A DNA stretch of 64,000 nucleotides from Candidatus Latescibacterota bacterium (lineage in GTDB: Bacteria > Latescibacterota > UBA2968 > UBA8231), in contig CBDCSU010000006.1 in assembly GCA_965221775.1 (NCBI GenBank), forward strand, positions 768,001 through 832,000, written 5' to 3'. A model generated the notes under the pieces. The model was not told the origin of the DNA and did no database searches. It saw only the letters and a list, made by a program, of their open reading frames with translations. This document shows positions 1,394 through 49,661 of this stretch, in pieces. The translations under genes were made by a program, and so were the position numbers. Each line of letters begins with the position of its first letter. The first letter of the stretch is position 1.

Positions 1394-1582
1394 GGGAGGG
1401 GCTGGAGGCCGGGATTTCTCGCCAGGGCGCCGACGGCAGAGTCGGTATTCGAGAGCTGTCAGCCCCGCCCCGATGTTCTCCAGCGGGCCCAGCAGATGCG
1501 GATCGCACCCGACATCATCGGCGGCGGCCTGTCGTAGGGCACTTCAATCCGGATCTCTTTCACGCCGCCTTGTTCGGCCGCC

Positions 1583-1643
1583 TTGCAAGTTTCACTATAT
1601 TACCTATATTCACCGAGTGCTGAAATCTGATGTTACAGTGAAA
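1583..1643 (+). promoter_or_regulatory. Putative sigma70 promoter (leaderless) with inverted repeat operator
   Basis: TTGCAA(1583)-16 nt-TATATT(1605); GTG start at 1617; inverted pair TTTCACT(1590)/AGTGAAA(1637); AT-rich patch in a GC-rich background. Confidence 0.5.
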
Positions 1644-2726
1644 TCAGCGGCCCACCGCGCCGTCGACGCGGTTCGCGAGCTGCTCCGCAACGTGCCGAGC
1701 GTGCAGGTCGAGTCCGCCAAGTATGAAGGAGACATCGGCCGCGACTACGGCGTGGACGGACTAGTCGCATTTGCCCACCGCGGCGGCAACTTCGCGCTCG
1801 TCGTCGAGGCGAAGTCCAACGGAGCCCCCCGCTTCGTCCGCTCCGGGGTCTATCAACTCGAGAGCTGCGTGGCTCGATTGCGCCGATCCGGTGAGGTAAA
1901 TGGCGGCAGGCGCCTCATTCCAATGATCGTCAGCCCCTACCTGTCTCCAGAATCCCGAGCCATCTGCCTGGACCACGACACCGCGTATCTCGATCTGGTC
2001 GGGAACGCGAGGCTCGCGTTCGACACCGTCTACATAGAGCGTGCCGTCGCGGAGAGGCCCGTCGCGGAAACCCGTGCGCTACGCTCGATCTTCACTCCGA
2101 AGGCGGCAGCGATCCTGCGAGTTCTGTTGCGCGAACCGGGACGCGCGTGGCGCGTCGCAGATCTGGCGGTGCAGGCGCAGGCGAGCTACGGCCATGTGAG
2201 TAATGTCCGCAAGGCTCTGCTGGCCCGCGAATGGATCGAGGTCGGGGATGACGGCGCTGTCCTCGTTCAACCGGACGCCCTACTGAAGACATGGCGCGCG
2301 TGCTATCGGCGCCCTGCCGGCGAGTCCATCACCGGATATACTCATCTCCATGGAAGGCAGCTCGACGAGCGGCTCCGGGGCAGGCTCAACCCGCATCCCG
2401 AGCGTCCGCGTGCCATCTACGCGCTGCACTCAGCCGCGCAGTGGCTTGCGCCTTTCGGCCGGGTCGGCACCCACGCTTTCTACGCCGACGAACCGGGCGC
2501 CGAAGCTCTGAGAGAGGCGTTGAAGCTGACGCACGCGGCCAGGGGCACGAACGTCGTGCTGCACATCCCAACGGATGAGAGCCTGTTCTACGACGCGAGC
2601 GAACCCGGACCGAACGTGTTCTGCACCAGTACCATCGTGACTTATCTCGATCTCTGGAACGGCAGCGACCGTGACCGCGAGGCGGCCGAACATCTCGCGG
2701 GCGAGTTCCTCCCATGGCTGAAGTAG
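1617..2726 (+). CDS. AbiEi-like type IV TA antitoxin / HTH transcriptional regulator
   Basis: N-terminal REase-like region (VVEAKSNG, SPYLS, YLDLVGN), central wHTH (WRVADLA...ASYGHVSNVRKAL), C-terminal YLDL..G.DR.REAAEHL; start chosen at GTG 1617. Confidence 0.65.
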   Translation: MLKSDVTVKSAAHRAVDAVRELLRNVPSVQVESAKYEGDIGRDYGVDGLVAFAHRGGNFALVVEAKSNGAPRFVRSGVYQLESCVARLRRSGEVNGGRRLIPMIVSPYLSPESRAICLDHDTAYLDLVGNARLAFDTVYIERAVAERPVAETRALRSIFTPKAAAILRVLLREPGRAWRVADLAVQAQASYGHVSNVRKALLAREWIEVGDDGAVLVQPDALLKTWRACYRRPAGESITGYTHLHGRQLDERLRGRLNPHPERPRAIYALHSAAQWLAPFGRVGTHAFYADEPGAEALREALKLTHAARGTNVVLHIPTDESLFYDASEPGPNVFCTSTIVTYLDLWNGSDRDREAAEHLAGEFLPWLK

Positions 2727-3571
2727 ACCCGCAATACGCCTCTGATTACAACGATCGCACCACGGTCGCCGTCAAGTCGGTGCTGGTCGAAATCGGGCAG
2801 ATCCTCGGCAGCTACCGGGGAAGATTCGCCGTGATCGGTGGGGCCGTCCCCTGGCTGCTGCTGAACGAGTCCGACATGCAGCACATTGGAACTCTGGACG
2901 TGGATCTCAGTCTGGATGCGGAAGCCTTGGGTGACGGCGAGTACGCCCAGCTTGTCGAGTCCCTCTTGAGTCAGGGTTACCACCAGTCCGAGAGGCGGCG
3001 CCGCTTTCAACTGGTGCGCACCGTGCCCGCCCGCGACGGCGGAGACGACATCGACATCATCGTCGACTTCCTGATGCCGCGCGACGCCACGATCGCGAAG
3101 AACACTCCTCCGCTCGTGGCCGACTTCGCGGTTCAGCGCGCCGACGGCGCGGATCTCGCCTTGAGGTTCTATCAGCTAGTCGCCATCGACGGCGACATGC
3201 CCGATGGCGGGGGCAACCGCGTCCAGATCGCCGTCGCGTCCATTCCCGCGCTGCTGGCCATGAAGGGCTACGCCATCGCGAGCCGCTTCAAACCGAAGGA
3301 CGCCTACGACATCTACTACAGCATCCGCAACTTCCCGGGCGGCATCGAGGCGCTCGTCGCGGCGACCGAGCCACTCCTCGAATACGAGACAGCGAGGACC
3401 GGCTATCTCCATGTCTCGGACAAATTCCGCCACTCGGACGATTTCGGTCCGACCAGGGTGCGGCACTTCGTCGACCGGCCCGAGATGCTCGAAGAGCGCA
3501 CCGCCGATCAATGGCAGCAGGACGCGTTCGGGCAGGTCGACGCTTGGCTCTCGGCGCTGGGCCTGAGGTGA
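2714..3571 (+). CDS. AbiEii-like nucleotidyltransferase (putative type IV TA toxin)
   Basis: VIGGAV...GTLDVDL Pol-beta NTase motif, LLAMKGYA and KDAYDIYY; overlaps the upstream gene by 13 nt. Confidence 0.7.
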   Translation: MAEVDPQYASDYNDRTTVAVKSVLVEIGQILGSYRGRFAVIGGAVPWLLLNESDMQHIGTLDVDLSLDAEALGDGEYAQLVESLLSQGYHQSERRRRFQLVRTVPARDGGDDIDIIVDFLMPRDATIAKNTPPLVADFAVQRADGADLALRFYQLVAIDGDMPDGGGNRVQIAVASIPALLAMKGYAIASRFKPKDAYDIYYSIRNFPGGIEALVAATEPLLEYETARTGYLHVSDKFRHSDDFGPTRVRHFVDRPEMLEERTADQWQQDAFGQVDAWLSALGLR

Positions 3572-3574
3572 TCC

Positions 3575-4474
3575 GTGGCCGCAGCGTCAAATGTCAGGAT
3601 CCGCTCGATGGACATCCCGACCATCGACAGGGTGTTCGGCATGGAAGACGGCTATGTGCTCAACTTCACCAACCAGACCTTCGCCGAGTTCTTTCACGAC
3701 GAGCTCGGCGTCAACATCTACGATGACCGTTGGGGGGCTCAAGGCAATAGCAAGGCGAACCGCCTTCGCTGCTACCTGCGAACAGCGGGCCGCCAGGCAG
3801 CACTCAAGGCCCTCAAGGCGCTATGGGAGTACCGCGAAGCGAGCAGCGTAACTGCCGACTATCCAGAACTCGAAGACAAGGTGCGCGCGGCCTACGTGCG
3901 AATCGTCCAGCGCCTCGGGGGCACGGAGGCGAAACCGGCGCCGACCGCCGCAGCTCAGAGAGAACAACGAGTCGATGTGGCCGTAACCTCTGCTCTCGCC
4001 GACCGCTTGGTCGAAGTCTCCACCTTGAACCCACAAGCTCGCGGCTATGCGTTCGAGGAGTTCCTGAAGGCCGTATTCGATGCCTACGGTATGGCCGCGC
4101 GCGCCTCCTTCCGTCTCAGGGGCGAGCAGATCGACGGCAGTTTCGTGCTCGCCGAACAGACCTACTTGCTCGAAGCCAGATGGAGGAACGCCAAGGTCGA
4201 TGTGGAAACCCTTCGTGCCTTCAATGGCAAGGTCGAGGAAAAGGCGAGCTGGTCGCGAGGCCTGATCATCAGCCAAAGCGGCTTCACGGAAGACGGACTG
4301 CATGCATTCGGCCGCGGCAAGCGGGTCATATGCATGGATGGACTCGACCTGCACGAAGTTCTCTCCGGCCGGCTCCACCTCGCTGATGTCATTACTCTGA
4401 AGGCTAGGCGCGCAGCAGAAACCGGCATGGCGCATGTCCCGGTGCGCGATCTCAATGTACCCGCCCTGAAATGA
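3575..4474 (+). CDS. Restriction endonuclease-like protein (AbiJ-type N-terminal domain + Mrr-like PD-(D/E)XK domain)
   Basis: GYVLNFTNQTFAEFF...GNSKANRLR N-domain; RGYAFE, EQIDGSF, YLLEARW and SGFT motifs. Confidence 0.7.
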   Translation: MAAASNVRIRSMDIPTIDRVFGMEDGYVLNFTNQTFAEFFHDELGVNIYDDRWGAQGNSKANRLRCYLRTAGRQAALKALKALWEYREASSVTADYPELEDKVRAAYVRIVQRLGGTEAKPAPTAAAQREQRVDVAVTSALADRLVEVSTLNPQARGYAFEEFLKAVFDAYGMAARASFRLRGEQIDGSFVLAEQTYLLEARWRNAKVDVETLRAFNGKVEEKASWSRGLIISQSGFTEDGLHAFGRGKRVICMDGLDLHEVLSGRLHLADVITLKARRAAETGMAHVPVRDLNVPALK

Positions 4475-4538
4475 GTTTCGTGGTAGCGCTGATCGGGCTG
4501 ACGACGGGGGCAACTCTGACCGGGTTCCGACCGCGACC

Positions 4539-4658
4539 GACGAGATCGAGCGGCATCTGGACCCGTGGAGGCAGCAACGGGTTCTCGCCGATCTCGCGAG
4601 GCCTTCCCGAATACCAGTTTCATCGCATCCACCCACAGCACCGCAGGTGCTGACGACC
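4539..4658 (+). pseudogene. Degenerate duplicate fragment of ABC/AAA ATPase Walker B-H-loop region
   Basis: With two 1-nt frame corrections it reads DEIERHLDPWRQQRVLADLA-AFPNTSFIASTHS-PQVLTT, paralleling 4842-4961. Confidence 0.7.
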
Positions 4659-5285
4659 GCGGATACGGACGGTGAGACTGATGTCCACCAAACGGGGGCA
4701 ACTCCAGAGAAGCTCTCTCTTGACCAGTTGGGCGGCGGCCATCTCATTGCGCTGGCGCTGGCGGCCGATCTGGCTCGACGGGATGGCGCAGGGAACCCGC
4801 ACCTGGATGATCCCCGCCATTCCGAGGCGATCGTCCTGATCGACGAGGTGGAACTCCACCTGCATCCGCGGTGGCAGCAGCGAATCCTGGGCGATCTGGT
4901 CCGCACCTTTCCCAACACCCAGTTCATCGTATCAACTCACAGCCCGCAGGTGCTGACCACGGTCGAACCTCACCGGATCGTGGAACTGTCTCACGACGGC
5001 GACCGTATCGTCGCCGGGACTCCCGCCGGGCCGACATTTGGAGCCGAGGCCGGGGACGTTCTCTCCGTGGTGATGGGCGTAGACGAACGGCCGCCGGAGA
5101 ACGCCTTCACAAGAGCCCTGGATCAGTATCGTCGCCTGCTCAGGGAGGAGCGGTCGGAGTCCGAAGAAGCCCTGGCCCTGCGGGCGAGCCTGGAAGAGAT
5201 GTCCCCCTACGATCCAGCCCTCGATCGTGCCGACCTTGAAATCCGTCGACGCAAGCTGTTCAGGCAGCGCGCCGAGTCCCGGTGA
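4647..5285 (+). pseudogene. C-terminal half of PtuA/AAA_21-like ABC ATPase (Walker A missing)
   Basis: Degenerate signature (QLGGG), IVLIDEVELHLHPRWQ, FIVSTHSPQ; no GxxGxGKS upstream. Confidence 0.75.
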
Positions 5286-5410
5286 AGGAGACTCGCGAAG
5301 ATATCCTGGCAGAAGATCCCCAGGAGTGGATCTGAGGCACTCAGGACCTCCACCGCGTGGTGCCGCCCGGGTCTCATGCCGCCCGGCTTGCAGTCGGGCG
5401 GTCCCCCCCC

Positions 5411-5485
5411 TTGACAATCCCCGGCCTTGCCAACAGATTCGTTGCCAACGGTCTTGTTGCCAACGGATGCGTTGGAAAGGAGAGT
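5411..5485 (+). promoter_or_regulatory. Sigma70-type promoter overlapped by 15-bp-period GTTGCCAAC repeats
   Basis: TTGACA(5411)-17 nt-CAGATT(5434); repeat units at 5426, 5441, 5456 and a degenerate unit at 5471; RBS AGGAGA at 5478. Confidence 0.6.
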
Positions 5486-5490
5486 TGGTG

Positions 5491-6750
5491 GTGCTCAAGA
5501 AAGCAGGGGCCAACTGGGTCGAGGGGGATCGATTCTTCGGCCGGGAGGTAGAACTCCAGGCCCTTTCCGAGCGGGTCGGGGACGGCACCCACACCCTGCT
5601 GACCGCGCAGCGACGGATGGGCAAGACGAGCCTGGTCCGGGAGCTGCTGCGCCGTCTGAAGCAGGAGGGCCGGTTCGAGACGGTCTTCGTCGACTTGGAG
5701 GACGCCGGCACCCCGGCGGACGCCGTCGCAGAGATCGGGGCCCGGTCGAGACCTGTGCAGGGCGTCTGGCGGCAACTCAAGTCCTGGTTGGTCAACAACT
5801 TATCCGAGGTAGGGATCGGCGCCCGGCTGGAGGAAATGCCCGCCCATGAGGTGTGGGTGAAGCTCCGGGCGGGGATCGACGCCGGGAACTGGCGCCAGAA
5901 GGGGGACGAGGTCTTCTCGGCCCTCGCCCAGAACGACCGCCCTGTCGTGCTCGCCATCGACGAGCTGCCGATCCTCGTCAACCGGCTGCTCAAGGGGACT
6001 GACCACCGCATTACTCCCGAGCGGCAGAGGGCGGTTGACGAGTTCATGGCCTGGCTCCGCAAGAACGGCCAGGCCCATCGGAACCGGGTCATCCTGATCC
6101 TCGCCGGCAGCGTCAGCCTGGAACCGATCCTGGCGCAGGCGGAGCTGAGCGCTCACGCCAACATCTACTCCCCTCTCGATCTGAAGCCCTGGGACGATGA
6201 GACGGCCGCCAACTGTCTGGCGGCGCTGGCGCAGACCTACGGCCTCGACCTGCCCCTCGATGTCTGCCGGGAGATGTGCCGCCGGCTGCGGTGCCAGATT
6301 CCCAACCACGTGCAGCAGTTCTTCGACAACCTCCGCGAGCACCTGCGCCGCGCCGGCCGGCGCGAGGCCACGATGGAAGACGTAGGGCGCGTGTACAACC
6401 AGATGCTCGGCGCCCGGGGGCAGATGGATCTGGAGCATTACGAGGGCCGGCTGAAGATGGTACTGGGGAGGACGGGCTATCGGACCGCGCTAGAGATTCT
6501 GACAGAGTCCGCCATCGGTGACGGCTTGCTGAGCGACGATACGATCAGCCGCTATCGCGAGTATCTCCAGGGTGAGTCCCGGGACGAGGCCGAGGCGGGT
6601 CCGGTCCCGTTGGAGGACGTGCTCCGTGTGCTCGAACACGACGGGTACCTGGCGCGGCATGGGGACGGCTACCGGTTCGTTTCCGGCCTGCTCGAAGACT
6701 GGTGGCGCGCCCGGCACAGCCGGCACTTCGTCCCCATCGAACAGCGATGA
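5491..6750 (+). CDS. STAND/AAA-like ATPase with C-terminal winged helix
   Basis: FFGRE, Walker A AQRRMGKTS, Walker B LAIDE, sensor ILAGS, C-terminal LEHDGYL..YRF.SGLL.DWW; RBS-supported GTG (5488 or 5491). Confidence 0.85.
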   Translation: MLKKAGANWVEGDRFFGREVELQALSERVGDGTHTLLTAQRRMGKTSLVRELLRRLKQEGRFETVFVDLEDAGTPADAVAEIGARSRPVQGVWRQLKSWLVNNLSEVGIGARLEEMPAHEVWVKLRAGIDAGNWRQKGDEVFSALAQNDRPVVLAIDELPILVNRLLKGTDHRITPERQRAVDEFMAWLRKNGQAHRNRVILILAGSVSLEPILAQAELSAHANIYSPLDLKPWDDETAANCLAALAQTYGLDLPLDVCREMCRRLRCQIPNHVQQFFDNLREHLRRAGRREATMEDVGRVYNQMLGARGQMDLEHYEGRLKMVLGRTGYRTALEILTESAIGDGLLSDDTISRYREYLQGESRDEAEAGPVPLEDVLRVLEHDGYLARHGDGYRFVSGLLEDWWRARHSRHFVPIEQR

Positions 6751-9545
6751 CCATCCCTGTCAGGAAGTACAACCCGGGGTTCCTCACCGACGAGGAACTG
6801 ACGGCCTCGTTCTGCGTTCGGAAGGCCGAGTTCGACTCCATGACCGAGATCCTCCGCGAATGCATCGGCGCCTCGAATCCGCACCAGATCGTGATCGGCC
6901 CGCGCGGAAGCGGCAAGACCAGCCTGCTCCTGCGAGTCGCGGCCGAGGTTCGCCGGGACCCGGAGCTATCTGCCCGCTTCCAACCCGTCGTCTTTGCCGA
7001 GGAGAGCTACGAAGTCGCCAGCACCGGGGAGTTCTGGCTGGAAGCCCTCGCCCGTCTGGCGGACCAAGCGCCGGCCCGGGAGGACGCTCCGGATCTGCAC
7101 CGCACCCTGGAAGACCTGCGCACCATCCAGGACGACCAAACCCTCGGCGACCGCTGCCTCGCCGCGCTTCTCGACTTCTCCGACCGCGAGGACAAGCGGC
7201 TCGTGCTGATGGTCGAGAACCTGAACTCCATGTTCCGCGACATGTCGGACCGCGACGCCGGCTGGCGGCTGCGCAAGATCCTCCAGACCGAGCCGCGCAT
7301 CATCCTGCTCGCCAGCGCCACCAGCCGCTTTGACGAGATCGACCACCCGGACCACGCCCTCTACGACTTGCTCCGTGTCCGCACGCTGGAACCGCTCGAC
7401 ACCAAGGAGTGCCAGGTGCTGTGGGAGACAGTCTCCGGCGCTCCCCCACCGCGCCAGACGATTCGGCCTCTCGAAATCCTCACCGGCGGCAACCCGCGCC
7501 TCGTGGCCATCGTAGCCAGCTTCGGAGCAGAGCTTTCCTTCCGCGCGTTGATGGACGACCTCCTCGACCTCGTGGACGAGCATACGGAGTACTTCAAGCG
7601 CCACATTGAGGCTCTCCCCCCCCAAGAGCGGCGGGTCTACCTGGCGCTGGCGGACCTGTGGAAGCCGGCCACCACGAGGGAGATCACCGAGCGCTCGCGG
7701 ATCGATACAAGCAAGTGCAGCGCCCAGCTCACCCGCCTCATCGAGCGGGGCGTAGTCCAGGTGACCGGCGGCAGCCTGCGCCGCAAGCAGTACTACCTGA
7801 CCGAGCGGCTGTACAACATCTACTACCTGCTGCGCCGCAATGGCGGTCCCGACTCTCTGATCCAGGCCCTCATCCGGTTCATGGAGTCGTTCTACTCCCG
7901 GTCCGCCCTGAGAGACATCGGCGAGAGAATCGCCCAGGAGGGGCGAGGCCTAGACGGGGAGCGGCGATCGCTGCACCGGACGGCGCTTGAAGTGCTGGTT
8001 CAGCTACCGGGTCTGGCCGGGCATCGAGAGGAGTTGCTTGCGCTCCTTTCCGAGGACGAACACGAAGAGCTGGCGGCTGCGAAGCCGCTGTTGCACAGAG
8101 CGGTCGAGCTGCAGAAACAAGACCGGCTGGTGGAGTCGCTGGCCACCTGGGACGAGGTGGTGCGGCGGTTAGGGGACGGCCGGTCACCAGACGTCTGCCA
8201 ACTGGTCGCCATAGCCCACTACTGCAGAGGGGAGGCTCTCGGAGAGCTGGGCCGATGGGAGGAAGCACTTGCGGGACATGAGGAAGCGCTGGCCGCCTAT
8301 GGGGAGGTGGAACGGCGATGGGGCGGGGATACGGAGGTGGATGTCGAGATGGTCACCGACGCTCTTCTCAGTAAGGGGGTCGCTCTCGCCCAGCTCGACA
8401 GGACGGAGGAATCGCTTGCCGTCTTTGGGGAGGTGGTGCGGCGATTCGGCGGGTGTCCTTTGCCAGAGGTCCTCGAACAGGTCGCCGCAGCCCTCTTCTG
8501 CATGGGTGTTGCCCTCGCCATCCTGAACCGACCCGAGGAGGCACTGGCCGCGTATGAGCTGGTGGAGCGGCGACTCGGAGGGAGCGACACGGAGGAACAT
8601 CTGGCGTTGCTCGCCAGGACCATCCTCAACAAGGGTGCTGCCCTCTACGAACTGGGCCGGACCCACGAATCGCTGGCTGTCTACGAGGAGGTCGTGCGCC
8701 GATTCGAGGAGAGCGAATCACCGGATAGTCTCCAGATGGTTGCCAATGCCCTTGTCAACAAGGGCGCCGCGCTTGGCGAGCTGGAGCGGCCGGAGGAAGA
8801 ACTGGCCGCCTTTGAGGAGGTGATACAGCGATTCGGTGAGAGCGGGATACCCGCCCTTGCCGAACCGTTGGCAGTGGCCTTCACCTACAAGGGGATGACA
8901 CTGGGACAACAGAACAGGACAGAGGAAGCCCTGGCTGCTCTTGAGGAAGTTGAACGGCGTTTTGGGGCAGATGACTCCCCCCCACTGCGTGCACGGGTCG
9001 AGGAGGCGCTCCTGGAGAAAGCCGAACTCCAGCTGGAATGCCGCCGATATGAGGCAGCCGCATCTACTGCTGGCCGGGTACTCGACGAGAGCAGCACGAA
9101 ATCACTGGAGAACCGCTGGCGCGGTCACGTGATACGGGCCAAGGCGAGCCTTCGCAACGGTGATCCGACCTGCTGCCGGAGGGAGATCAAGGAAGTTCTC
9201 CGGGTCCTTCCGCAGTTCAAGACCCTGCCTGAAGAGTGCTCCTACGAACTGATGCACTTCAGCATCAGGCTCGGCCTGGAGCCCATGGTCGAACTAGTCC
9301 AGGGCTCTCCATCAGCGAACCTTCTGCTGCCGTTCACCACGGCGCTGGAACAGGAACTCGGCCGCACGCCCCGGGTGGCGCAGGAGATCGCTGAGGTTGC
9401 CTGGGACATCCGCCAGAAACTGGCGACGCTGAGAAATCTGCTAGCACAATTCGGGAGTGAGGCTACTTCTGGTATGCACGCAGATGGCATCGACAGGCAT
9501 TCCACAGATTTGGGGGTGAAGGAGAATCATGGAACACAGGACTGA
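6747..9545 (+). CDS. ATPase (STAND-like) + wHTH + TPR-repeat protein
   Basis: ATGA overlap; Walker A GPRGSGKTS, atypical Walker B (LMVENL), TGGNPR, wHTH (TTREITERSRIDTSKCSAQLTRLIERG), 7 clear and 1 degenerate ~45-aa TPR-like repeats. Confidence 0.85.
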   Translation: MTIPVRKYNPGFLTDEELTASFCVRKAEFDSMTEILRECIGASNPHQIVIGPRGSGKTSLLLRVAAEVRRDPELSARFQPVVFAEESYEVASTGEFWLEALARLADQAPAREDAPDLHRTLEDLRTIQDDQTLGDRCLAALLDFSDREDKRLVLMVENLNSMFRDMSDRDAGWRLRKILQTEPRIILLASATSRFDEIDHPDHALYDLLRVRTLEPLDTKECQVLWETVSGAPPPRQTIRPLEILTGGNPRLVAIVASFGAELSFRALMDDLLDLVDEHTEYFKRHIEALPPQERRVYLALADLWKPATTREITERSRIDTSKCSAQLTRLIERGVVQVTGGSLRRKQYYLTERLYNIYYLLRRNGGPDSLIQALIRFMESFYSRSALRDIGERIAQEGRGLDGERRSLHRTALEVLVQLPGLAGHREELLALLSEDEHEELAAAKPLLHRAVELQKQDRLVESLATWDEVVRRLGDGRSPDVCQLVAIAHYCRGEALGELGRWEEALAGHEEALAAYGEVERRWGGDTEVDVEMVTDALLSKGVALAQLDRTEESLAVFGEVVRRFGGCPLPEVLEQVAAALFCMGVALAILNRPEEALAAYELVERRLGGSDTEEHLALLARTILNKGAALYELGRTHESLAVYEEVVRRFEESESPDSLQMVANALVNKGAALGELERPEEELAAFEEVIQRFGESGIPALAEPLAVAFTYKGMTLGQQNRTEEALAALEEVERRFGADDSPPLRARVEEALLEKAELQLECRRYEAAASTAGRVLDESSTKSLENRWRGHVIRAKASLRNGDPTCCRREIKEVLRVLPQFKTLPEECSYELMHFSIRLGLEPMVELVQGSPSANLLLPFTTALEQELGRTPRVAQEIAEVAWDIRQKLATLRNLLAQFGSEATSGMHADGIDRHSTDLGVKENHGTQD

Positions 9546-10611
9546 GGGGGAGACACTACTCGCCCATCTTGCCTGGAAGCTGTCCTCGCGTCACGAGGAC
9601 ATCGCGGTGGAAGCCCTTGGCTTCATCCTGAAGTCGGATTCCACACTCCGTGCGATAGAAGGGGTCTTGGAGGATGGAGGCGCGGATGTCGGGAAGATTG
9701 CCAGGATCCAGACCCAGGTCAGCGGCGATGGGGAGACGCGGCCGGACCTCGTCGGCTTTGATCAGCATGATGTGGAGTGCGTGTTGATCGAGGCGAAGTT
9801 CTGGGCCGGCCTCACGGCCAATCAGCCCAATGCGTATCTCGACAGATTGGCCCCTGGCAAAGCACTCCTGTTCGTCGCGCCTGAATCGAGGCTGGAGACG
9901 CTCTGGCCGGAGTTGCGCCGCCGGGCCGACTCTGACCGCCTGCTCTCCATCCTTGACAGGACTTCCCTCAAGAGCGCCGCGACCGATGACGGGAAGCACC
10001 TGATGATGATCAGTTGGGCGGATCTGCTCGACCGCCTCCAAGGTGCCGCCGACTCCTCCTCAAGGAACGAGATACGGCAGTTGCGGGGTCTTGTACATCG
10101 GGTGGATGACGAGAGTGGGTATCCGCCGCTCCGGCCGGAGGAGCTGGCCCCGGAGATCCCACGCCGGCTGCTCAGCCTGGAGCGCCTCATCGGCGACGCC
10201 ACGGCCCGGGCCGTGGAACAAGGATACGCGGATATCAAGGGTTTGAATGTCACCCCGTATCCGGGCGGTTACGGGCGCCCGCGCGGGTACGGACGGTATC
10301 TCTCGTTGAAGGGCGCCATCGCCTGGTTTGGCATCGGCCTCAACTGGTGGGTCCGGGGAGGATATTCGGATACCCCCCTCTGGCTTTCCTTCGGGCTATC
10401 GAAAGATGAAGGGTACAGAGCGCGCTGGCCGGACACGAGCAGGGCCCTCGAGCCGCTCAAGCGAAGGGACCCGCCCGAGTGTCTGGAAGAGAATCAGGCG
10501 CTCCTTGTCCCCATCGCCCTGCCGACTGGAGTCGAATACGACGCTGTGCTCGATGCCGTGGTTGAACGTCTCCGGGAGATCGCCGATCTCATCGACAAAC
10601 ACCGGACCTGA
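9529..10611 (+). CDS. PD-(D/E)XK superfamily nuclease
   Basis: RPDLVG...VLIEAKFWAGLT.NQP..Y motif; RBS AAGGAG; overlaps the upstream gene by 17 nt. Confidence 0.75.
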   Translation: MEHRTEGETLLAHLAWKLSSRHEDIAVEALGFILKSDSTLRAIEGVLEDGGADVGKIARIQTQVSGDGETRPDLVGFDQHDVECVLIEAKFWAGLTANQPNAYLDRLAPGKALLFVAPESRLETLWPELRRRADSDRLLSILDRTSLKSAATDDGKHLMMISWADLLDRLQGAADSSSRNEIRQLRGLVHRVDDESGYPPLRPEELAPEIPRRLLSLERLIGDATARAVEQGYADIKGLNVTPYPGGYGRPRGYGRYLSLKGAIAWFGIGLNWWVRGGYSDTPLWLSFGLSKDEGYRARWPDTSRALEPLKRRDPPECLEENQALLVPIALPTGVEYDAVLDAVVERLREIADLIDKHRT

Positions 10612-10621
10612 CCAGTCACCC

Positions 10622-11764
10622 TCACTCCCACCCCGCCTCCGCCGCCAGCACCTTCACCGCCTCCACCAGCACCTCCAGCTCCGCCTCGCTGATGTAGAAC
10701 GCCACCGAGATCCGGACGCCGCTCGGATCGGTCAGGTAGGTGGCCCGCTGCACGATCTGCCAGCGGTCCTTCAGCGCCGCCGACACCTCCCCGCCGTCCA
10801 TGCCCTCGATGGCGAAGGTCACGGTGCCGGTCTGCGAGTCCCGCCGCCGTGAGCTGTGCACCAGGACGCCGGGCACGGTGTCGAGGCTCGCCTTCAGGGC
10901 CTCCGCCTTTCGCGCCGACTCGCGCTGGATCGCCTCGACGCCGCCGATGCTCTCGATGAGGTCGATCGTCGCCGCCACGCCGGCGTAGAGGGCGTAGGAG
11001 GGGGTGCTGGTGACGTACTGGGCGGCGCCTCCCTCGGGATCGTGGGGTCGGAGGAGGGGCTTCAGGCTCTGGCGCGCCTCGTCGCTGACGTAGAGGAAAC
11101 CCGTCCCGATGGGGCCGAGCATCCACTTGTAGCAGTTCGAGGCGTAGTAGTCGCAGCCCATCTCCCGCAGGTTCACGGGGATCTGGGCCACGGCGTGGCA
11201 GCCGTCCCACAGGGTGGGGACGCCCCGCTCCCGCGCCAGCCGGCAGATCTCCGGGGCCGGCACCACCAGGCCGGTGTCGGTGGTGACGTGGCTCATGCAG
11301 ATCAGGCGCGTGCGCGGGGTCAGGGCCCGCTCGGTGTGCTCGAGGGTGACCGCGGGGTCGTGGTCGATCTCGACGGCCTTCAGGACGACGCCGTAGCGCT
11401 CCTGCAGGCCGAGGACGGCCCGGTGCGGCACGGGGTGCTCCTCGCTGGTGATCAGCACCTCCTCCCCCGGCTCCCAGGACAGGCCGCCGATGACCGCCGC
11501 GATGCCGTCGGCGGTGCTCACGGTGAGGGTGAGGTCTCCCTCCTCCGCCCCGAGGAAGGCGGCCAGCCGGGTCCGTGCCGCGTCGGCTGCCTGGCTGGTC
11601 AGGGTGTACCACTCGATGGGCGGCACATGCTCCTCGTAGAGCTGGTCGAAGCCGGCCTGCACGGCGGCGTGCACCTCCCGGGACGGCAGCCCGACGCCGC
11701 CGGTGTTGAGCTGGATCCCCCGGCTCAGGCCGGGGTAGTGGGCGCGGATCTCCTCGAGGTTCAC
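10622..11764 (-). CDS. Aminotransferase class V (cysteine desulfurase/isopenicillin N epimerase-like)
   Basis: LNTGG, EEHP, SHVT..TG, DGCH, SNCYKW (PLP lysine). Confidence 0.9.
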   Translation of the reverse strand: MNLEEIRAHYPGLSRGIQLNTGGVGLPSREVHAAVQAGFDQLYEEHVPPIEWYTLTSQAADAARTRLAAFLGAEEGDLTLTVSTADGIAAVIGGLSWEPGEEVLITSEEHPVPHRAVLGLQERYGVVLKAVEIDHDPAVTLEHTERALTPRTRLICMSHVTTDTGLVVPAPEICRLARERGVPTLWDGCHAVAQIPVNLREMGCDYYASNCYKWMLGPIGTGFLYVSDEARQSLKPLLRPHDPEGGAAQYVTSTPSYALYAGVAATIDLIESIGGVEAIQRESARKAEALKASLDTVPGVLVHSSRRRDSQTGTVTFAIEGMDGGEVSAALKDRWQIVQRATYLTDPSGVRISVAFYISEAELEVLVEAVKVLAAEAGWE

Positions 11765-11882: not shown

Positions 11883-13341
11883 CTACCGGGCCGCCGGTGA
11901 GCCCGTGAGGCCCTCCACGGCTTCGGTCATCGCCTCCAGGACCGCCTCCAGGCAGCCCGGTGCCAGGCACGAGGGCTCCTCCTGGTAGAGGCCGAGGCCG
12001 TAGCGGTCCCGCGGCAGCAGGTAGGCCAGCTGCGGGGTCCCGGCCACGGGCGAGATCAGCACCGGCCGGCCGGGGAAGCGCCGCCGCAGCTCGGTCGCCA
12101 GCATCGCTGTAGGGCTCGGCGGCGCAGGTGATCCAGAGGGCGTCCCCCATCTCGTGGACGGTGAACCGATACGGACAGCGGTCGCCCGGGGGCAGCTCGG
12201 CGAGGCGCCGCAGCCACCGCCGGCAGCGCTCGGCGCGGGCGCCGGCGTCGCGCGCGGCCAGGGCGTCGCCGGCTTCGTCGGCTCGTGCCTGGTCGCGGGT
12301 GTGGCGGTCGAGGTCAGCCCTCAGCTGGTCCACGTCCGGCAAGTCCTTGAAGGGCAGGTCGACCTGAAAGCGGCCGACCGACCAGCGGCGCACCGCCTCG
12401 GCGCGGGGACCCGCCACGGGCGTCCACCCCCAGGTGCCGATGGTGGCGCCGGAGAGGACCGGCCCCTGGTAGGCGAAGTCGTGGCCGGGCGGACCGAGGC
12501 CGGCGAGGGCCGACAGGGCGGCGAAGCCCAGCTGCCGGCCGTTGCGGTCGGCCACCTCGGTGTCGCCGGTGAAGCCGTCGCGGGGCCCCAGTTCGCCGCA
12601 CAGGCCCTGGAAGTAGACGCAGGGGGTGCCGGTGTGGTCGCTGACCACCTGGCGGGCAGCGCCGACGAAGTCGGGGCTCAGGAGGCTGTTGTCCCAGGAT
12701 AGAGTCGTGGGGTGGCAGGCGTAGTGCACGAGGTGCAGGCGGGGGGTGCCGTCGAGGGCGGTGACCCGCGCCGCCACCACAAGGTCCTCGGCGGCCTCGC
12801 CGGGGTTGAAGCCGGTGACCCGGAGGTCCCGCTCCTCGTCATGGTAGTCGCGGTTGGCGGCCATGCCGCAGCGGCCCTCGGCGTAGGTGACCACGGCCTC
12901 GTCCAGGTCCTCCAGGGCGTCCCGGGCGAGGGAGCCGAGGGTCTCCCCGAGGCCGGCGAGGTAGGGCTCGATGAGGTCGCCCCCGGGCAGGGGGATGCGG
13001 TCGGGCGGGTAGAAGCCGGCGGCGTGGGTGTGGGAGAAGGTGACGACGACGCGGTCCCGGTCGACGCCGGCGGCGCGCACCAGGCCGGCCACCACCGCGT
13101 CGGTCTGGCCGTCGTCGAGCAGCACGTGGTCGAGCTGCACGCGCACCAGGCGCTCCCGCGGCCGGTCCACCGGCTCCAGGACGAGCACGTCCGCCATCAG
13201 CGGCCGGTGCACGCCGGTGGCGCGGTCGTGGCGGGCGGCGCCCCACATGCGGTGGTAGATGCCCACGGGCGGCGTGATGTCGCCGTGGGCGTGGCCCAGG
13301 CGCAGCACCGACGTGGGCGTGGGAACGAGCGTCGTCGACAT
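11883..13341 (-). pseudogene. Neutral/alkaline ceramidase-like hydrolase with +1 frameshift near 12105
   Basis: DITPPVG, SHTHA, YACHPT, FQG.CG; natural C-terminus (MLATELRRRF...YQEEPS) continues in another frame after AEPYS. Confidence 0.7.
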
Positions 13342-13408
13342 GGAATCCCTCCGGCTCCGGGCGGCTCAAGCTGTGGCGGCGGTTCGATCGTGGCAATAGG
13401 ATCTGAGA

Positions 13409-14248
13409 ATGCCCGCGCCCGTGGAGCACCTGATCTTCCTCATCCACCCCTGCTGCTACGAGCCGGTCGAGGCCGAGCGCATAGAGCGGGAAGGGCTGCG
13501 GCTCTTTCTCGAGCGGGAGGAGGAGGTGAAGGCGCGCTGGCTGGCCGACCTCTCCGCCGGGGGCGAGGCCACCCTCTTCGCGCAGCTCGGGGGGCCGGAG
13601 TACCTGCGCGACGCGGCGGCCGAGTCCCTCGGGGAGACGGGAGCCCTGCTGCTGCGGAGCCCCTTCCCCGAGAGCGGGCATCTGGACGAGTACTACCGCC
13701 GACTGCGGGACGAGCTGCTGGAGCACCTGGACCGCCACGATCTCACCCTCGACCGGGAGACCGTGGCCTCCGAGTTGTGGGGCGAGTCCTTCGAGGGCTG
13801 CGTCCCCGGGTACGGCGGCGCCTTCGCCCATCACCTGGGACTGCAGCGGGCGCCGCGGATGCGCTTCGAGATGACCGTGTACGACTCCCGCTTTTTGCAC
13901 CGGGCGCGCCGCCGGGAGAGCCTGGCCCTGCCCGGAAGCGATGTCGAGGCCTGGCTCTTCGAGTGCCACGACGGCACCGGCGCCGCCACCTTCCAGCCGC
14001 GCCTCACGCCCCAGTGGCTGGACCGCCGGCGCCTGTGGCTGAGGCTGAACGACCGCCGCCACCAGCTCTGCGACAAGCAGGGCCACGCCGTGTGGCCGGT
14101 CTCCCCCTGGGAGAAGGGGAAGCCCGAGGGCGAGCACAATGTCACGGTGGCGATGAAGGAGTGGATCAACCGCTGGGTGCGGGGCGTGGGCACCGGCATC
14201 GACGAGTTCCGCGCCGTCGTCGAGGCGGCGCGCCTGACGGCCCCGTGA
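13409..14248 (+). CDS. Hypothetical protein
   Basis: 279-aa ORF with host-like GC3 bias; stop overlaps the lhr start. Confidence 0.75.
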   Translation: MPAPVEHLIFLIHPCCYEPVEAERIEREGLRLFLEREEEVKARWLADLSAGGEATLFAQLGGPEYLRDAAAESLGETGALLLRSPFPESGHLDEYYRRLRDELLEHLDRHDLTLDRETVASELWGESFEGCVPGYGGAFAHHLGLQRAPRMRFEMTVYDSRFLHRARRRESLALPGSDVEAWLFECHDGTGAATFQPRLTPQWLDRRRLWLRLNDRRHQLCDKQGHAVWPVSPWEKGKPEGEHNVTVAMKEWINRWVRGVGTGIDEFRAVVEAARLTAP

Positions 14249-17200
14249 GCACCGCCTCGCCGCCCGCGGCGCAGGACGCCCTCGAGCTGTTCCACCCCCT
14301 CGTGCGCCGGTGGTTCACCGAGCGCGTCGGCGAGCCCACCGACGTGCAGGCCGCCGCCTGGCCGCGCATCGCCGGCGGCGAGCACCTGCTGGTCACCGCG
14401 CCCACCGGCTCCGGCAAGACCCTCACCGCCTTCCTGTGGGCCCTCGACCGCCTGGTCCGCGGCGACTGGCCGGAGGGGGCCACCAGCGTCCTCTACGTCT
14501 CGCCCCTGAAGGCGCTCAACAACGACATCCAGCGCAACCTCCTCGGGCCGCTGGAGGAGCTGCGGCAGCGGTTCCAGGCCGCCGGCGAGCCCTTCCCCCC
14601 CATCCGCGCCCTCACGCGCTCCGGGGACACGCCCCAGGAGGACCGGCGCCGCATGCTGCGCCAGCCGCCGGAGATCCTCATCACCACCCCGGAGTCCCTC
14701 AACCTGCTGCTCTCCTCCCAGGGGGGGCGCGGCCTGCTCACCGGCCTGCGGTGCGTCATCCTCGACGAGATCCACGGCGTCGTCGGCAGCAAGCGCGGCG
14801 TCCACCTGATCACCGCCGTGGACCGCCTCGTGCGCCTCTCGGGGGAGTTCCAGCGGATCTCCCTGTCGGCGACGGTGCGGCCCCTCGACCGGGTGGCGGC
14901 CTTCGTCGGCGGCTTCCGGCGCCTGCCGGGGCGGGGCGGCGAGCGCTACGAGCCGCGTCCCGTGGCCGTCCTGCGCTCCTCGGCTTCCAAGCGCTACGAC
15001 GTCTCCGTGCGCTTCCCGGAGGCCGCCGACGCCGAGGGCGAGAATCAGGACGACTCGATCTGGCCGGCCATGGCCGAGGCCTTCGAGGAGATCATCGCCG
15101 GCAACCGCTCGACCCTGCTCTTCGTCAACGCCCGCCGCCTGTGCGAGAAGATCACCCGCTTCCTCAACGAGGGCCGCGAGCAGCCCCTGGCCTACGCCCA
15201 TCACGGCTCCCTGTCGCGCGAGATCCGCGAGGTCGTGGAGCGCCGCCTGAAGGAGGGGGAGCTGAAGGCGATCGTGGCCACCAACTCCCTGGAGATGGGC
15301 ATCGACATCGGCGCCCTCGACGAGGTCGTCCTCGTGCAGTCGCCGCCGTCGGTCTCCTCCGCCGTGCAGCGCGCCGGCCGCGCCGGCCACCAGGTCGGCG
15401 AGGTGAGCAAGGCCACCCTCTATCCCACCCACGGCCACGACTTCCTCGAGGCGGCGGTGCTGGCGGCGCAGATCGACGCCCACGACATCGAGGAGATCGA
15501 CCCCGTCACCGGCGCCCTCGACGTCCTCGCCCAGGTGCTGATCTCCATGGCCGGCACCGAGAGCTGGGACCTGGACGAGCTCTACGACGAGGTGCGCGCC
15601 AGCTTCCCCTACCGCCACCTCGCCCGCCGCCAGTTCGACCTCGTCGTCGACATGCTCGCCGGCCGCTACGCCGGCAGCCGGGTGCGCGACCTGCGGCCCC
15701 GGGTGACCGTGGACCGTCTCGACAACACGGTGGAGGCGCGCCGGGGGGCGATGAGCCAGCTCTACATGTCGGGCGGCACGATCCCCGACCGCGGCCTCTT
15801 CAACCTGCGCCTGGAGGGCTCGGGCGCGAAGCTGGGCGAGCTGGACGAGGAGTTCGTGTGGGAGTCGTCCGAGGGGCAGTCCTTCACCCTGGGCACCCAG
15901 AACTGGACGATCCGCAAGATCACCCACAACGACGTGCTGGTGAGCCCGGCGCCGGCCCGCACCGTGGACCTGCCCTTCTGGAAGGGGGAGGGCGCCAACC
16001 GCGACTTCCACTTCTCCAGCGCCATCGGCCGCTTCCTCGAGGACGCCGAGGCCGGCCTCGAGGGCCCCGCCTTCCGGCAACGGCTCACCGACCGCCACCA
16101 CATGGACGAGACCGCCGCCGGCAGCCTCCTCGACTTCCTCGGGCGCCAGCGCGAGGCCACCGGCGCCCCCCTGCCCCACCGCCATCACCTGCTGGTGGAG
16201 CACGTCGCCTCGGCCCCGGGGGGATACATGGGCAGCCAGGTGGTGCTGCACACGTTCTGGGGCGGGCGCGTCAACCAGCCCTTCGCGCTGGCCCTCGACG
16301 CCGCCTGGGAGGAGCGCTTCGGGGGCCGCATCGAGGTCTATCCCTCCAACGACTGCATCGTCCTCGTCCTGCCGGCGGAGACCGGCTCCGAGGAGATCCT
16401 CAGCCTCGTCACCTCCGGCCGCGTGGAGGAACTGCTGCGCCAGCGGCTGGAGGCCTCCGGCTACTTCGGGGCCCGCTTCCGCGAGTGCGCCCAGCGGGCC
16501 CTGCTGCTGACCCGGCGCAGCCTGACCGAGCGCATGCCCCTGTGGCTGAGCCGCCTGCGCTCGCAGCGCCTGCTCGACACGGTGATGCGCTACGAGGACT
16601 TCCCCATCCTCGTCGAGGCCTGGCGCTCCTGCCTGCAGGACGGCTTCGACCTGCCCGCCCTGCGCCTCGTCCTCTCCGAGCTGGAGTCCGGCGCCATCGA
16701 GTGGTCGGAGTGCCGCACCCGCCGCCCGAGCCCGTTCTCGCGCTCCGTCGCCTGGGGGCAGGTCAACGAGTACATGTACGCCGGCGACGCCGCCGCCGGC
16801 CGCCAGACCTCGGAGCTGCGCTCGGACCTGCTGCGCGAGGTCGTCTTCACCCCCGGCCTGCGGCCCACCCTCCCGGCCCACGTGGTGCGGCGCTTCGAGG
16901 AGAAGCGCCAGCGCCTGCACCCGGGGTACGCGCCGTCCGAGGCGCGGGAGCTGGTCGACTGGGTCGACGAGCGCCTGCTGGTCCCGTGGTCCGAGTGGGA
17001 GGCCCTGCTCGCCGCCGCGGCGCGGGACTCGGCCGAGGCCGGGGGGGAGGAGGGATGGGTGGAGGGGGAGGAGGAAGCCTGGAGGGGGCGAATCGTGCGG
17101 GTCGAGGCCGAGGTCCTGGCCGAGCCGGTGGTGGTTGCGCGTCAGGCCCTGGGGCGCCTCGCGGTATTCCCCTGGTGGGGGGAGGCGCGGGTGAGCGGGT

Positions 17201-19095
17201 TGGATGGCGCGCCGGTGGAGGTCGAGCTGGTGGAGGCGGGCCTGGAGAGCGAGGACGCCGGGGGCCCTGGGGACGCGGAGGAGGAACGCGGGGGCTCGGG
17301 ACTGGAGATCGAGGCCGCCCGGGCTGTTGCGGATACGGCAGAGGCGCCGGAGGACCCGAACCTGGGGAGCGGAGTCGGCAGCGGCGCCGGGAACGCGGAA
17401 GACCCGGAGGGCACGGGCCTTGGGATCGAGTCCACCGATGGCGTCGGGGGCCAGGAGGGGGCACGGGAGGACGCGGGCCTGGGGCTCGGAGACGGCGAGG
17501 CTGGCGGCGACGCGGAGGAGGGACCCCGAGGCTTGGGCCTCGAGCTCGGGGCCGTCAGTGGCGACGGGACGGACGAAGAAGACGCGCGGGAGGAACTCCG
17601 CCTCGAGGCCGCTGTCACCGCCTGGCTGTCCTACTACGGCCCGGTCGACCGAGGCCGCCTGGCGGGGACCCTGGGCCTCGGCGACCCGCTGCTGGCGTCC
17701 GTACTCGACGACCTGGCCGGGGAGCAGGCCGTCGTCGTCGGTACCCTGGTCGAGGGCGCGGAGCGGGACCAGGTCTGCGAGGCGGAGAACCTCGAGTCCC
17801 TGCTGCGCATGGCCCGGGCCGACGCGACGCCGGCCTTCCAGGCCCTGCCGGTGGACCAGCTGCCCCTGTTCCTCGCCGTCTTCCAGGGCCTCCACGAGCC
17901 CGGGGATACGCCCGAAGCCCTGCGCCGCCGGCTCGAGCCTCTCCTCGGCTGCGACGCCCCCGCCGGCCTGTGGGAGACCGAGATCCTGCCGGCGCGAATG
18001 CGCGGCTACCAGACGCCGCTCCTCGACGGGGTCCTGCAGGAGAGCGGCCTGCGCTGGGTCGGCTGCGGCCGCGAGCGCCTGACCTTCTGCTTCGAGCACG
18101 ACCTCGACCTGCTCGCCGGACCCACCGCCGACGACGGCGCGGCCTCCCTCTTCCCCGACCCCCACGGCCGCTACGACTTCTCCACCCTTCTGGAACTGGC
18201 CGGCCTCGACGCTCCCGCCCTGGCCGCGGCCCTGTGGGACGGCGCCTGGTCCGGCCGCGTCGGCAACGACTCCTTCGCCGCCGTCCGCCGCGGACTGGAC
18301 ACGGGGTTCCGGCCGCCCGAGGCGCCCGCCGCCGCGGAAGGCCTCCCGCCCGGCGGCGGACTCCGGGGCCCCCGTCCGCGCGGGGGCCGCCTGTCGCGAA
18401 GGGCCGCCGGCCGCTGGCGGGGAACCACCGTCTACCCCGGAAGCTGGCAGCTCCTGCCTCGACCAGAAGCCGCCGCGGACCCGCTGGAGGAGGAGGAGCG
18501 CAACAAGGACCGCGTGCGCCTTCTCCTCGACCGCTACGGCGTCCTTTTCCGCGAACTGCTGCAACGCGAGCGGCCCACCCTGCGGTGGAAGGGGCTGTTC
18601 CGCGCCCTGCGGCTGATGGAGCTCTCCGGCGAGATCCTCGCCGGCCACTTCTTCGAGGGCGTGCCGGGGCCCCAGTTCGCCAGCCACCGCGCCTTCCGCC
18701 TGCTCTCTCGGGATCTGCCGCGGGAGGCCGTGTTCTGGCTCTCCGCCGCCGATCCGGCCTCCGCCTGCGGCCTCGGGCTGGAGGGCCTGCGCGCCTCCCT
18801 GCCGCGGCGGGTGGCGGGCACCCACCTCGTCTACCACGGGCCGCGGCTGGTGCTGGAGTCGCACCGCAACGGCCGGCGCCTGGTCTTCCACGTCGCCCCC
18901 GACGACCCGCGCCTGCCCGAGTACCTGGCGCCCCTCGACCACCTCCTCACCCGCGCCCGCCAGCCGGTGCGGCAGCTGGAGATCGAGACGGTCGACGGCG
19001 CCCCGGCGGCGTCCAGTCCCTTCGCCGACGTCCTCGGCGCCCAGTTCGACCTGAGGCGCGACCACCACAGCCTGATCCTGCTGCGCAACGTCTGA
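14245..19095 (+). CDS. lhr: Lhr family ATP-dependent DNA helicase (full-length, with C-terminal domain)
   Basis: APTGSGKT, SPLKALNND, TTPESL, DEIH, SAT, HHGSLS, QRAGRAGH, GTIPD and GELDEEFV motifs; GTG at 14245. Confidence 0.92.
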   Translation: MSTASPPAAQDALELFHPLVRRWFTERVGEPTDVQAAAWPRIAGGEHLLVTAPTGSGKTLTAFLWALDRLVRGDWPEGATSVLYVSPLKALNNDIQRNLLGPLEELRQRFQAAGEPFPPIRALTRSGDTPQEDRRRMLRQPPEILITTPESLNLLLSSQGGRGLLTGLRCVILDEIHGVVGSKRGVHLITAVDRLVRLSGEFQRISLSATVRPLDRVAAFVGGFRRLPGRGGERYEPRPVAVLRSSASKRYDVSVRFPEAADAEGENQDDSIWPAMAEAFEEIIAGNRSTLLFVNARRLCEKITRFLNEGREQPLAYAHHGSLSREIREVVERRLKEGELKAIVATNSLEMGIDIGALDEVVLVQSPPSVSSAVQRAGRAGHQVGEVSKATLYPTHGHDFLEAAVLAAQIDAHDIEEIDPVTGALDVLAQVLISMAGTESWDLDELYDEVRASFPYRHLARRQFDLVVDMLAGRYAGSRVRDLRPRVTVDRLDNTVEARRGAMSQLYMSGGTIPDRGLFNLRLEGSGAKLGELDEEFVWESSEGQSFTLGTQNWTIRKITHNDVLVSPAPARTVDLPFWKGEGANRDFHFSSAIGRFLEDAEAGLEGPAFRQRLTDRHHMDETAAGSLLDFLGRQREATGAPLPHRHHLLVEHVASAPGGYMGSQVVLHTFWGGRVNQPFALALDAAWEERFGGRIEVYPSNDCIVLVLPAETGSEEILSLVTSGRVEELLRQRLEASGYFGARFRECAQRALLLTRRSLTERMPLWLSRLRSQRLLDTVMRYEDFPILVEAWRSCLQDGFDLPALRLVLSELESGAIEWSECRTRRPSPFSRSVAWGQVNEYMYAGDAAAGRQTSELRSDLLREVVFTPGLRPTLPAHVVRRFEEKRQRLHPGYAPSEARELVDWVDERLLVPWSEWEALLAAAARDSAEAGGEEGWVEGEEEAWRGRIVRVEAEVLAEPVVVARQALGRLAVFPWWGEARVSGLDGAPVEVELVEAGLESEDAGGPGDAEEERGGSGLEIEAARAVADTAEAPEDPNLGSGVGSGAGNAEDPEGTGLGIESTDGVGGQEGAREDAGLGLGDGEAGGDAEEGPRGLGLELGAVSGDGTDEEDAREELRLEAAVTAWLSYYGPVDRGRLAGTLGLGDPLLASVLDDLAGEQAVVVGTLVEGAERDQVCEAENLESLLRMARADATPAFQALPVDQLPLFLAVFQGLHEPGDTPEALRRRLEPLLGCDAPAGLWETEILPARMRGYQTPLLDGVLQESGLRWVGCGRERLTFCFEHDLDLLAGPTADDGAASLFPDPHGRYDFSTLLELAGLDAPALAAALWDGAWSGRVGNDSFAAVRRGLDTGFRPPEAPAAAEGLPPGGGLRGPRPRGGRLSRRAAGRWRGTTVYPGSWQLLPRPEAAADPLEEEERNKDRVRLLLDRYGVLFRELLQRERPTLRWKGLFRALRLMELSGEILAGHFFEGVPGPQFASHRAFRLLSRDLPREAVFWLSAADPASACGLGLEGLRASLPRRVAGTHLVYHGPRLVLESHRNGRRLVFHVAPDDPRLPEYLAPLDHLLTRARQPVRQLEIETVDGAPAASSPFADVLGAQFDLRRDHHSLILLRNV

Positions 19096-49652: not shown

Positions 49653-49661
49653 GGAGATCCC

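Follow-up and report, generated by a model that had tools for sequence, protein, structure and literature searches.

A paired STAND-like ATPase cassette with a putative operator array in a Latescibacterota genomic island

Introduction

Among known systems, those closest to the locus described here are Avs (AVAST) and other NLR-like proteins of the STAND (signal transduction ATPases with numerous domains) class, and in Avs the effector, the STAND NTPase and the sensor are carried by one polypeptide. Plants and animals also have paired NLRs that consist of a sensor and a helper, for example, NAIP/NLRC4. The main text of PMC13581612, which counts 589 STAND clades, describes non-immune STAND regulators interspersed with immune ones and contains no paired or split STAND modules; its clade tables sit in supplements. 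Here we analyse a window of 64,000 nucleotides, the whole stretch of DNA under study, from a Candidatus Latescibacterota bacterium (assembly GCA_965221775.1, contig CBDCSU010000006.1, positions 768,001 to 832,000), and three neighbouring forward-strand genes within it. Gene A (5491-6750) encodes a 419-aa ATPase, gene B (6747-9545) a 932-aa ATPase with an array of tetratricopeptide repeats (TPRs), and gene C (9529-10611) a 360-aa protein of predicted PD-(D/E)XK nuclease type. We report that A and B form a conserved two-gene unit, to which C would be a lineage-specific addition.

Avs and other NLR-like proteins resemble B in having a P-loop nucleotide-binding oligomerization domain (NOD), a winged helix and a long, fast-diverging TPR array, and they resemble A-B as a whole in their patchy accessory distribution, with some loci in defence islands. 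In A-B, however, the NOD is distributed over two genes and the TPRs belong to B alone; there is no fused effector and no match to a PADLOC Avs or NLR model, and the two NODs form a fixed pair, one with a degenerate Walker B motif (EN), behind an operator array of their own. The broad STAND build of a P-loop nucleotide-binding domain, a helical domain with a GxP-like motif, a winged helix and a repeat sensor is present in B. By this analogy, A-B would function most like the bacterial NLR-like STAND sensors among known systems, although it falls outside Avs. Paired NLRs are like A-B in being a linked pair of one sensor carrier and one plainer NOD; the likeness is one of analogy alone, and the A-B partners have neither a signalling nor an executioner domain. 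The MalT/AfsR/LAL regulators share with A-B the combination of a NOD, a TPR-like sensor and repeated promoter sites, whereas A-B consists of two proteins, has no LuxR or SARP domain, and a second target was not found in its own genome. Septu (PtuA-PtuB) and MADS (MAD7-MAD8, as outlined in PMC13662399) are like the locus in that one or more ATPase genes are followed by a nuclease gene, but no component matches, the match to mad8 is weak and nuclease C is not a conserved partner.

We searched A, B and C against two profile libraries, PADLOC v2.0.0 and NCBIfam r20. PADLOC returned only weak P-loop matches (mad8, PDC-S27 and PDC-S01) and NCBIfam nothing above its cut-offs, in keeping with an earlier reading of the window's sequence (hereafter the original prediction), which had expected no full match to a described system. 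We found no description of such a paired cassette in the literature. A-B therefore appears to be undescribed, and it is possible that it is already listed among the supplementary clades of PMC13581612.

Results

The three-gene layout, the gene sizes, the coupling of A to B and the overlap of B with C that the original prediction had set out are all present. Gene A starts with GTG at 5488 or 5491, preceded by AAGGAGAG, and its stop codon overlaps the start codon of B in the sequence ATGA at 6747-6750. Gene C starts with ATG behind AAGGAG and overlaps the 3′ end of B by 17 nt.

Gene B follows gene A in every locus that has room for it. We fetched 79 genome loci starting from C and searched for A in 44 of their genomes, which gave 16 further A loci; a metagenome scan gave 79 more, 12 of which end less than 100 nt after A, leaving 67. 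B lies directly 3′ of A in 16 of the 16 further genome loci, and begins at most 400 nt after A in 67 of the 67 metagenome loci that extend 100 nt or more beyond A. The pairwise identities of A co-vary with those of B (r 0.97 for 105 pairs from 15 loci; the pairs are non-independent and the value is descriptive). The proposal that the two ATPases are a true pair is borne out by both observations. A and B are also the only genes common to the loci: the most frequent neighbour family was found in at most 5 of 98 loci, and no other effector gene recurs near the pair. Within the phylum, A is present in 38 of 168 genomes, and two of the nine other genomes of the genus have it; single genomes hold several A copies together with fragments. 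A-B is thus widespread, and by its sequence and distribution it is predicted to be a self-contained, horizontally spread two-gene cassette with its own promoter.

A distant A-B pair, with ~25% and ~18% identity, is located on the Clostridium estertheticum plasmid pCF003-70 (L132, 6941-13319), where annotation calls the two products 'ATP-binding protein' and 'tetratricopeptide repeat protein'. Genes for a DUF3800 protein and a GIY-YIG nuclease follow B on the same strand, and AT-rich repeats lie upstream of A. In two loci from genomes labelled Thermoanaerobaculia and Candidatus Multivorans (L115 and L116), an aldo/keto reductase gene overlapping the end of B is 94% identical between the two, and the flanking genes are also homologous, which suggests that a larger block including the A-B pair was transferred. 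We rejected two candidates for further shared genes. A third conserved gene upstream of A had been suspected from similar sizes (565-672 aa), and the proteins are unrelated; genes of 354-366 aa after B in L115, L116 and L123, considered as analogues of C, encode an aldo/keto reductase and a GFO oxidoreductase.

Gene A encodes a minimal P-loop NOD. The protein matches Pfam AAA_16 and AAA_22, and its match to ATPase_2 is sub-threshold (27.0 bits, cut-off 33.2), as are the nSTAND1 matches (24.3 and 21.7 bits, cut-off 27.1). Its Walker A motif RRMGKTS (RRxGKTS in the family) and Walker B residues D157 and E158 are invariant in an alignment of 24 relatives, confirming the intact Walker B that had been read from the sequence. 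A structure model built with high confidence on a 115-sequence alignment (pLDDT 95.5, pTM 0.93) resolves into a P-loop nucleotide-binding domain followed by a helical domain, with a winged helix at the C-terminus (residues 349-409). Among sequences with solved structures, the archaeal Walker-type ATPases 2qen (E 1e-7) and 2fna (E 5e-6) come closest; they are like A in size and in combining an ATPase with a winged helix, although A remains below the Pfam cut-off of their family, ATPase_2. A profile of A retrieved 1127 clusters (50% identity) at E <= 1e-30, nearly all of ~400-420 aa, and its best PADLOC match, mad8 (E 2.8e-6, 25 bits), is confined to the ATPase core. The motifs and the model thus make A a minimal NOD whose catalytic motifs are intact, and the predicted hydrolysis-competent partner of the pair.

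Gene B encodes a longer protein that matches Pfam AAA_16, several TPR families and, above threshold (29.5 bits, cut-off 25.6), the TrmB winged helix. Its Walker A motif, GPRGSGKT, is invariant in 16 relatives. Its Walker B motif reads LVLMVENL; E157 is invariant and N158 is found in at least 90% of the same relatives, and the atypical VENL that had been pointed out in the window is therefore a family-wide feature of the form hhhhEN. A TGGxPRL motif is located at 246-252 and the TrmB-like winged helix at 293-350. Even in the Clostridium plasmid homologue, at 18% identity, VENL and GSPRL are still there. In P-loop ATPases, loss of the catalytic glutamate is expected to spare ATP binding and to impair hydrolysis. 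Because hhhhEN stands in place of hhhhDE throughout the B family, the sequence suggests that B binds ATP but hardly hydrolyses it.

The NOD of B is 75% identical between the window and L112, a locus in which the TPR region is 33% identical and has repeat-sized indels. The TPR array thus diverges fast and gains and loses repeats, as a sensor might. The C-terminal tail of B is conserved among relatives; an Atlas search with residues 781-900 gave scores all below 0.9, to TPR-like clusters, and no useful lead. B also has weak matches to ORC-CDC6-like (E 2.9e-6), orc1/cdc6 and ORC4 proteins, with 26.7 bits against PF24389 (cut-off 27, residues 4-70 alone) and 17.6 bits against TIGR02928 (cut-off 181). 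By Pfam, neither A nor B has an effector domain, as the original prediction had stated.

Upstream of A we identified an array of three tandem perfect palindromes of the form CAAC-N6-GTTG (5431-5474, forward strand), with a period of 15 nt. The single sites are at 5431-5444, 5446-5459 and 5461-5474; the last abuts the ribosome-binding site of A, and the array begins downstream of a -35-like TTGACA box at 5411-5416 on the same strand that we read from the sequence as part of the cassette promoter. The sequence TTGCCAAC has three copies in the 64-kb window, all at this array and 15 nt apart. Many of 19 loci have a TTGAC box in the equivalent position; a consensus scan found no complete sigma-70 promoter here. 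In-phase runs of 2-6 sites precede A in 18 of the 19 genome loci, and such runs were reached by at most 1 of 500 shuffles per locus, with L126 as the exception (35/500). Of the 87 distinct loci whose upstream sequence is long enough, 81 contain two or more sites and 63 contain three or more. Sub-families differ in their half-sites (CAAT/ATTG, a GTTGACAAC core or CAGC/GCTG), and both halves switch together, keeping the symmetry. As the array is conserved, varies symmetrically and sits at the module's own promoter, we infer that a winged helix of the module binds it, which would amount to autoregulation. Dimers of a cassette-encoded winged-helix protein would bind the array and repress; B's TrmB-like domain is most likely the better candidate for this than A.

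The array raises the question of whether A-B could be a STAND-type pair of signal-sensing transcription regulators, like MalT, AfsR or the LAL proteins, with no immune role. A conserved operator array at the pair's own promoter is what such regulators would be expected to have, the winged helix of B scores above the Pfam threshold for the DNA-binding TrmB family, and an effector domain is missing. Metabolic genes surround many of the loci, in some cases overlapping the end of B, and the interspersion of non-immune with immune STAND regulators reported in the main text of PMC13581612 points the same way. However, the double operator site occurs once in the bacterium's own genome, here, and we found no regulon through it; the downstream genes are unrelated between loci, the distribution is patchy with multiple and decayed copies and low GC content at third codon positions (GC3), and Pfam finds no LuxR or SARP DNA-binding domain in either protein. 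We consider a purely regulatory role unlikely.

The original prediction had cast the nuclease as the linked third component of a split sensor/helper/effector system. The conserved ATPase pair with one degenerate partner upholds the first part of that architecture; the nuclease is not a general partner, and its linkage to the pair fails beyond a few loci. A and B are near C in 3 of the 79 C loci (L001, L006 and L072), and two of these, L001 and L006, are genus-mates at ~80% identity with the same A-B-C order. C is present in none of the 16 further genome A loci and in none of the 79 metagenome A loci, of which ~31 extend far enough (4.5 kb or more) to show it. In the phylum, C is found in 16 of 168 genomes, and 11 have both A and C. 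The three genes are adjacent in 3 of these 11 (G000, G209 and G211, all of genus g1), and in the other eight A and C are far apart or on different contigs. C is missing altogether from G147 and G148, two genomes that carry an A of 77-79% identity. Since C is missing from most A-B loci, it is not a general component of the cassette.

These counts bear on the view that A-B-C is one three-component defence system with the nuclease as its obligate effector in trans or, in a weaker form, that it is such a system in this lineage only. Several observations favour it. C overlaps B by 17 nt and has a ribosome-binding site of its own. Across the genus (ten genomes), the three genes are jointly present, as in three genomes of g1, or jointly absent, as in six others, a C fragment in G205 being the exception. 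In G204, with flanks 91-94% identical, the promoter and the three operators are retained and joined directly to the last ~25 codons of C; from this junction we conclude that all three genes were lost in one 5-kb deletion. C also lies beside two A-B pairs in the distant locus L072, and in eight cases a cluster of homologues of A (79-93% identity) and one of C (58-85%) have a longest contig of the same length, which suggests that more A-B-C contigs exist. Against this stand the absence of C from nearly all A-B loci, its separation from A in eight of the 11 genomes that carry both, the two genomes with A and no C, and the neighbours of C elsewhere, which are mostly metabolic genes. The junction between B and C also varies among genus-mates: in place of the overlap seen here, the other two have 100 and 43 nt between the genes. 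We regard the three-component system as doubtful overall, and the odds on an obligate three-gene model as low. C would instead be a lineage-specific add-on that joined in an ancestor of the genus and is, in this genome, probably co-transcribed through the 17-nt overlap. It may be a nuclease co-opted for output in this lineage, or an independent solitary nuclease that shares the island. In L072 (Longimicrobiales, 2245-11053), the two A-B pairs are back to back, with one A reduced to fragments, and the C homologue (41% identity) is transcribed divergently; this is the sole co-location outside genus g1.

The window's C protein itself had no Pfam, PADLOC, NCBIfam or PDB sequence match, and a search of the PDB with a C profile found nothing. 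In an alignment of 90 sequences, E28, Q63, D73, E88, K90 and Q99 are invariant. Fifty of the 90 relatives match PDDEXK_4 (PF14281), weakly (best E 1.7e-4), 17 match VRR_NUC, weakly, and an Atlas search of C led to PDDEXK_4 clusters; when the C profile was compared by hhalign with the Mrr_cat protein of the window, the probability was 1.6%, a value that is not decisive with a single-sequence template. A structure model of C (pLDDT 87, pTM 0.79) has an alpha-beta-beta-beta-alpha-beta core made of helix 22-33, strands 59-62, 74-77 and 83-89, helix 101-106 and strand 112-117, in which D73 is just ahead of the second strand and E88 and K90 lie where the third strand ends. With its invariant E, D, ExK and Q positioned on such a core, C resembles the PD-(D/E)XK nuclease superfamily (PDDEXK_4), from which it differs in that the window protein is unmatched and in having an extra, uncharacterised domain of ~170 aa (~190-360). 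On motif, topology and weak profile matches, C is a predicted PD-(D/E)XK-type, nuclease-like protein.

The large C family, whose members are stand-alone proteins, comprises 943 proteins at E <= 1e-3 among 8000 candidates scored, mostly labelled as uncultured bacteria of many phyla; we found no C relatives in IMG/VR. In the longer homologues (410-597 aa), Pfam assigns no domain to the added stretches. Caldilineaceae-type genomes contain tandem paralogues as well as extended forms of 454-597 aa (L021, L026, L036 and L075; P0042, P0120 and P0011), and several C-family loci hold split or fragmentary copies. In nine loci (L040, L041, L050, L052, L053, L057, L060, L065 and L079), a gene for an S-adenosylmethionine-dependent methyltransferase (~290 aa, Methyltransf_23/25) lies near C; in seven cases it immediately precedes C in the same orientation. 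C and the methyltransferase could be a restriction-modification-like pairing in that sub-family.

The cassette and C lie in an island of lower GC content, as had been proposed: GC is 0.63-0.66 across 2001-10000 compared with 0.70-0.76 outside, and GC3 is 0.74-0.84 compared with mostly 0.93-0.99 elsewhere in the window. The island is bordered by a short-chain dehydrogenase (SDR) gene (260-1393) and a class-V aminotransferase gene (10622-11764), and its gene content is variable between genus-mates. A variable part upstream of the cassette (1473-5285, forward strand) holds four genes or fragments: an unknown gene (1473-2726), an AbiEii-like gene (2714-3571; 25.2 bits, cut-off 22.5), an Mrr_cat gene (3575-4474; E 3.7e-10) and a 5′-truncated Septu PtuA fragment (4647-5285; PADLOC E 1e-57). 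The adjoining defence genes of the original prediction are thus present, but weak or degraded. PADLOC had no match at E <= 1e-5 to the AbiEii-like and Mrr-like proteins. The PtuA fragment, which is the sole strong PtuA match and is separate from A, B and C, covers model positions 254-452 of 455, the C-terminal half alone; with no N-terminal half and no PtuB after it, we take it to be a relic. It is also found upstream of A in L006 (83% nucleotide identity) and as a 28-aa trace in L001.

The SDR-aminotransferase interval (1419-10531 in the window; 7213-9796 of contig C18 in G204, L222) is a variable hot spot in the genus. The hot spot of G204 contains ~2.6 kb of unrelated DNA and the operator remnant, the AbiEii and Mrr genes are absent from the hot spots of L001 and L006, and contig C281 of G210 starts exactly at the aminotransferase gene. 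Elsewhere in the window, an open reading frame (ORF) at 12712-19095 encodes an Lhr-type large helicase (DEAD, WH_Lhr and DEAD_assoc) with domains from ~residue 540, and its listed start is probably too far upstream. An ORF of 1453 aa on the reverse strand (47658-52019), with a low GC3 of 0.74, has a Pfam match, to short-chain dehydrogenase, confined to the final 250 residues; it may have been extended too far, or may encode a large protein of unknown architecture.

Defence-type genes also neighbour the pair in other loci. These include PDC-M68B and an HmaB-type methylase (L112), PDC-S01 (L114), a mad3-like ATPase (L124), Cas3 (L125) and a patatin-like protein (L117); neighbours in other loci are reductases, a P-type ATPase, PSD1 and DUF885. 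The expected defence enrichment of the neighbourhood was thus visible in some loci, but only to a modest extent, and we regard the defence context of A-B as suggestive.

Discussion

We propose that A-B is a two-gene, STAND-like, autoregulated cassette of a defence-type sensor kind to which C is a lineage-specific add-on, and we give this reading a probability of about 0.55; for defence-type sensing as the role of A-B taken by itself, the odds are roughly even. B would be the ligand-sensing and probably DNA-binding subunit, which binds ATP and hydrolyses little of it, and A the hydrolysing partner, which would form a hetero-oligomer with B and reset or remodel it. Dimers of one of the module's winged helices, most likely the TrmB-like one of B, would bind the operators and keep the operon repressed until a ligand reaches the TPR array. 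The module would then be a sensor switch in conflict or defence, akin to NLR-like STAND proteins, with an output that is neither fused nor supplied by a conserved neighbouring effector.

Several points weigh against this proposal. With no effector domain in the pair and no conserved effector nearby, a defence output is left unexplained. No relatives of A were found in IMG/VR, and A is nearly absent from plasmids (2 of 72,556) and phages (one record, a partial match). Most neighbours of the pair are housekeeping genes; of 108 immediate neighbours in 83 loci, only a handful by raw count match PADLOC at E <= 1e-10. The operators may be bound by a host factor. As to C, the surely spurious family UreE_C matches 31 of the 90 relatives at E-values similar to those of the nuclease families.

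A bolder proposal is that A-B represents a new class of paired NLR-like immune receptor that has no fused effector and forms a repressor complex on its own operators. A hydrolysis-dead TPR sensor and a minimal catalytic helper would switch state on sensing a phage protein, and the output would be directed at DNA through the winged helices or would consist in activating a captured downstream effector, here the PD-(D/E)XK protein. We hold this to be possible at rather long odds. A maintenance or initiator-like module of a mobile element, in which ORC/Cdc6- or DnaA-like ATPases act on iteron-like repeats, is very improbable: the tandem repeats do resemble iterons, B has the weak ORC-type matches given above and the cassette has spread horizontally across phyla, but those matches fall below curated cut-offs and cover the P-loop region alone, no integrase, transposase or replication gene recurs beside the pair, the pair is almost absent from plasmids and phages, and the repeats sit where operators would, after the -35 box and ahead of the ribosome-binding site.

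That genes are translationally coupled in a single genome is not enough to define a system, as the fate of gene C across loci illustrates, and the operator array offers a direct experimental handle on the two genes that do stay together. If the proposed immune role is true, the A-B pair would give bacteria an equivalent of the paired sensor and helper NLRs of plants and animals, and one with an unusual output, reached without an effector domain.

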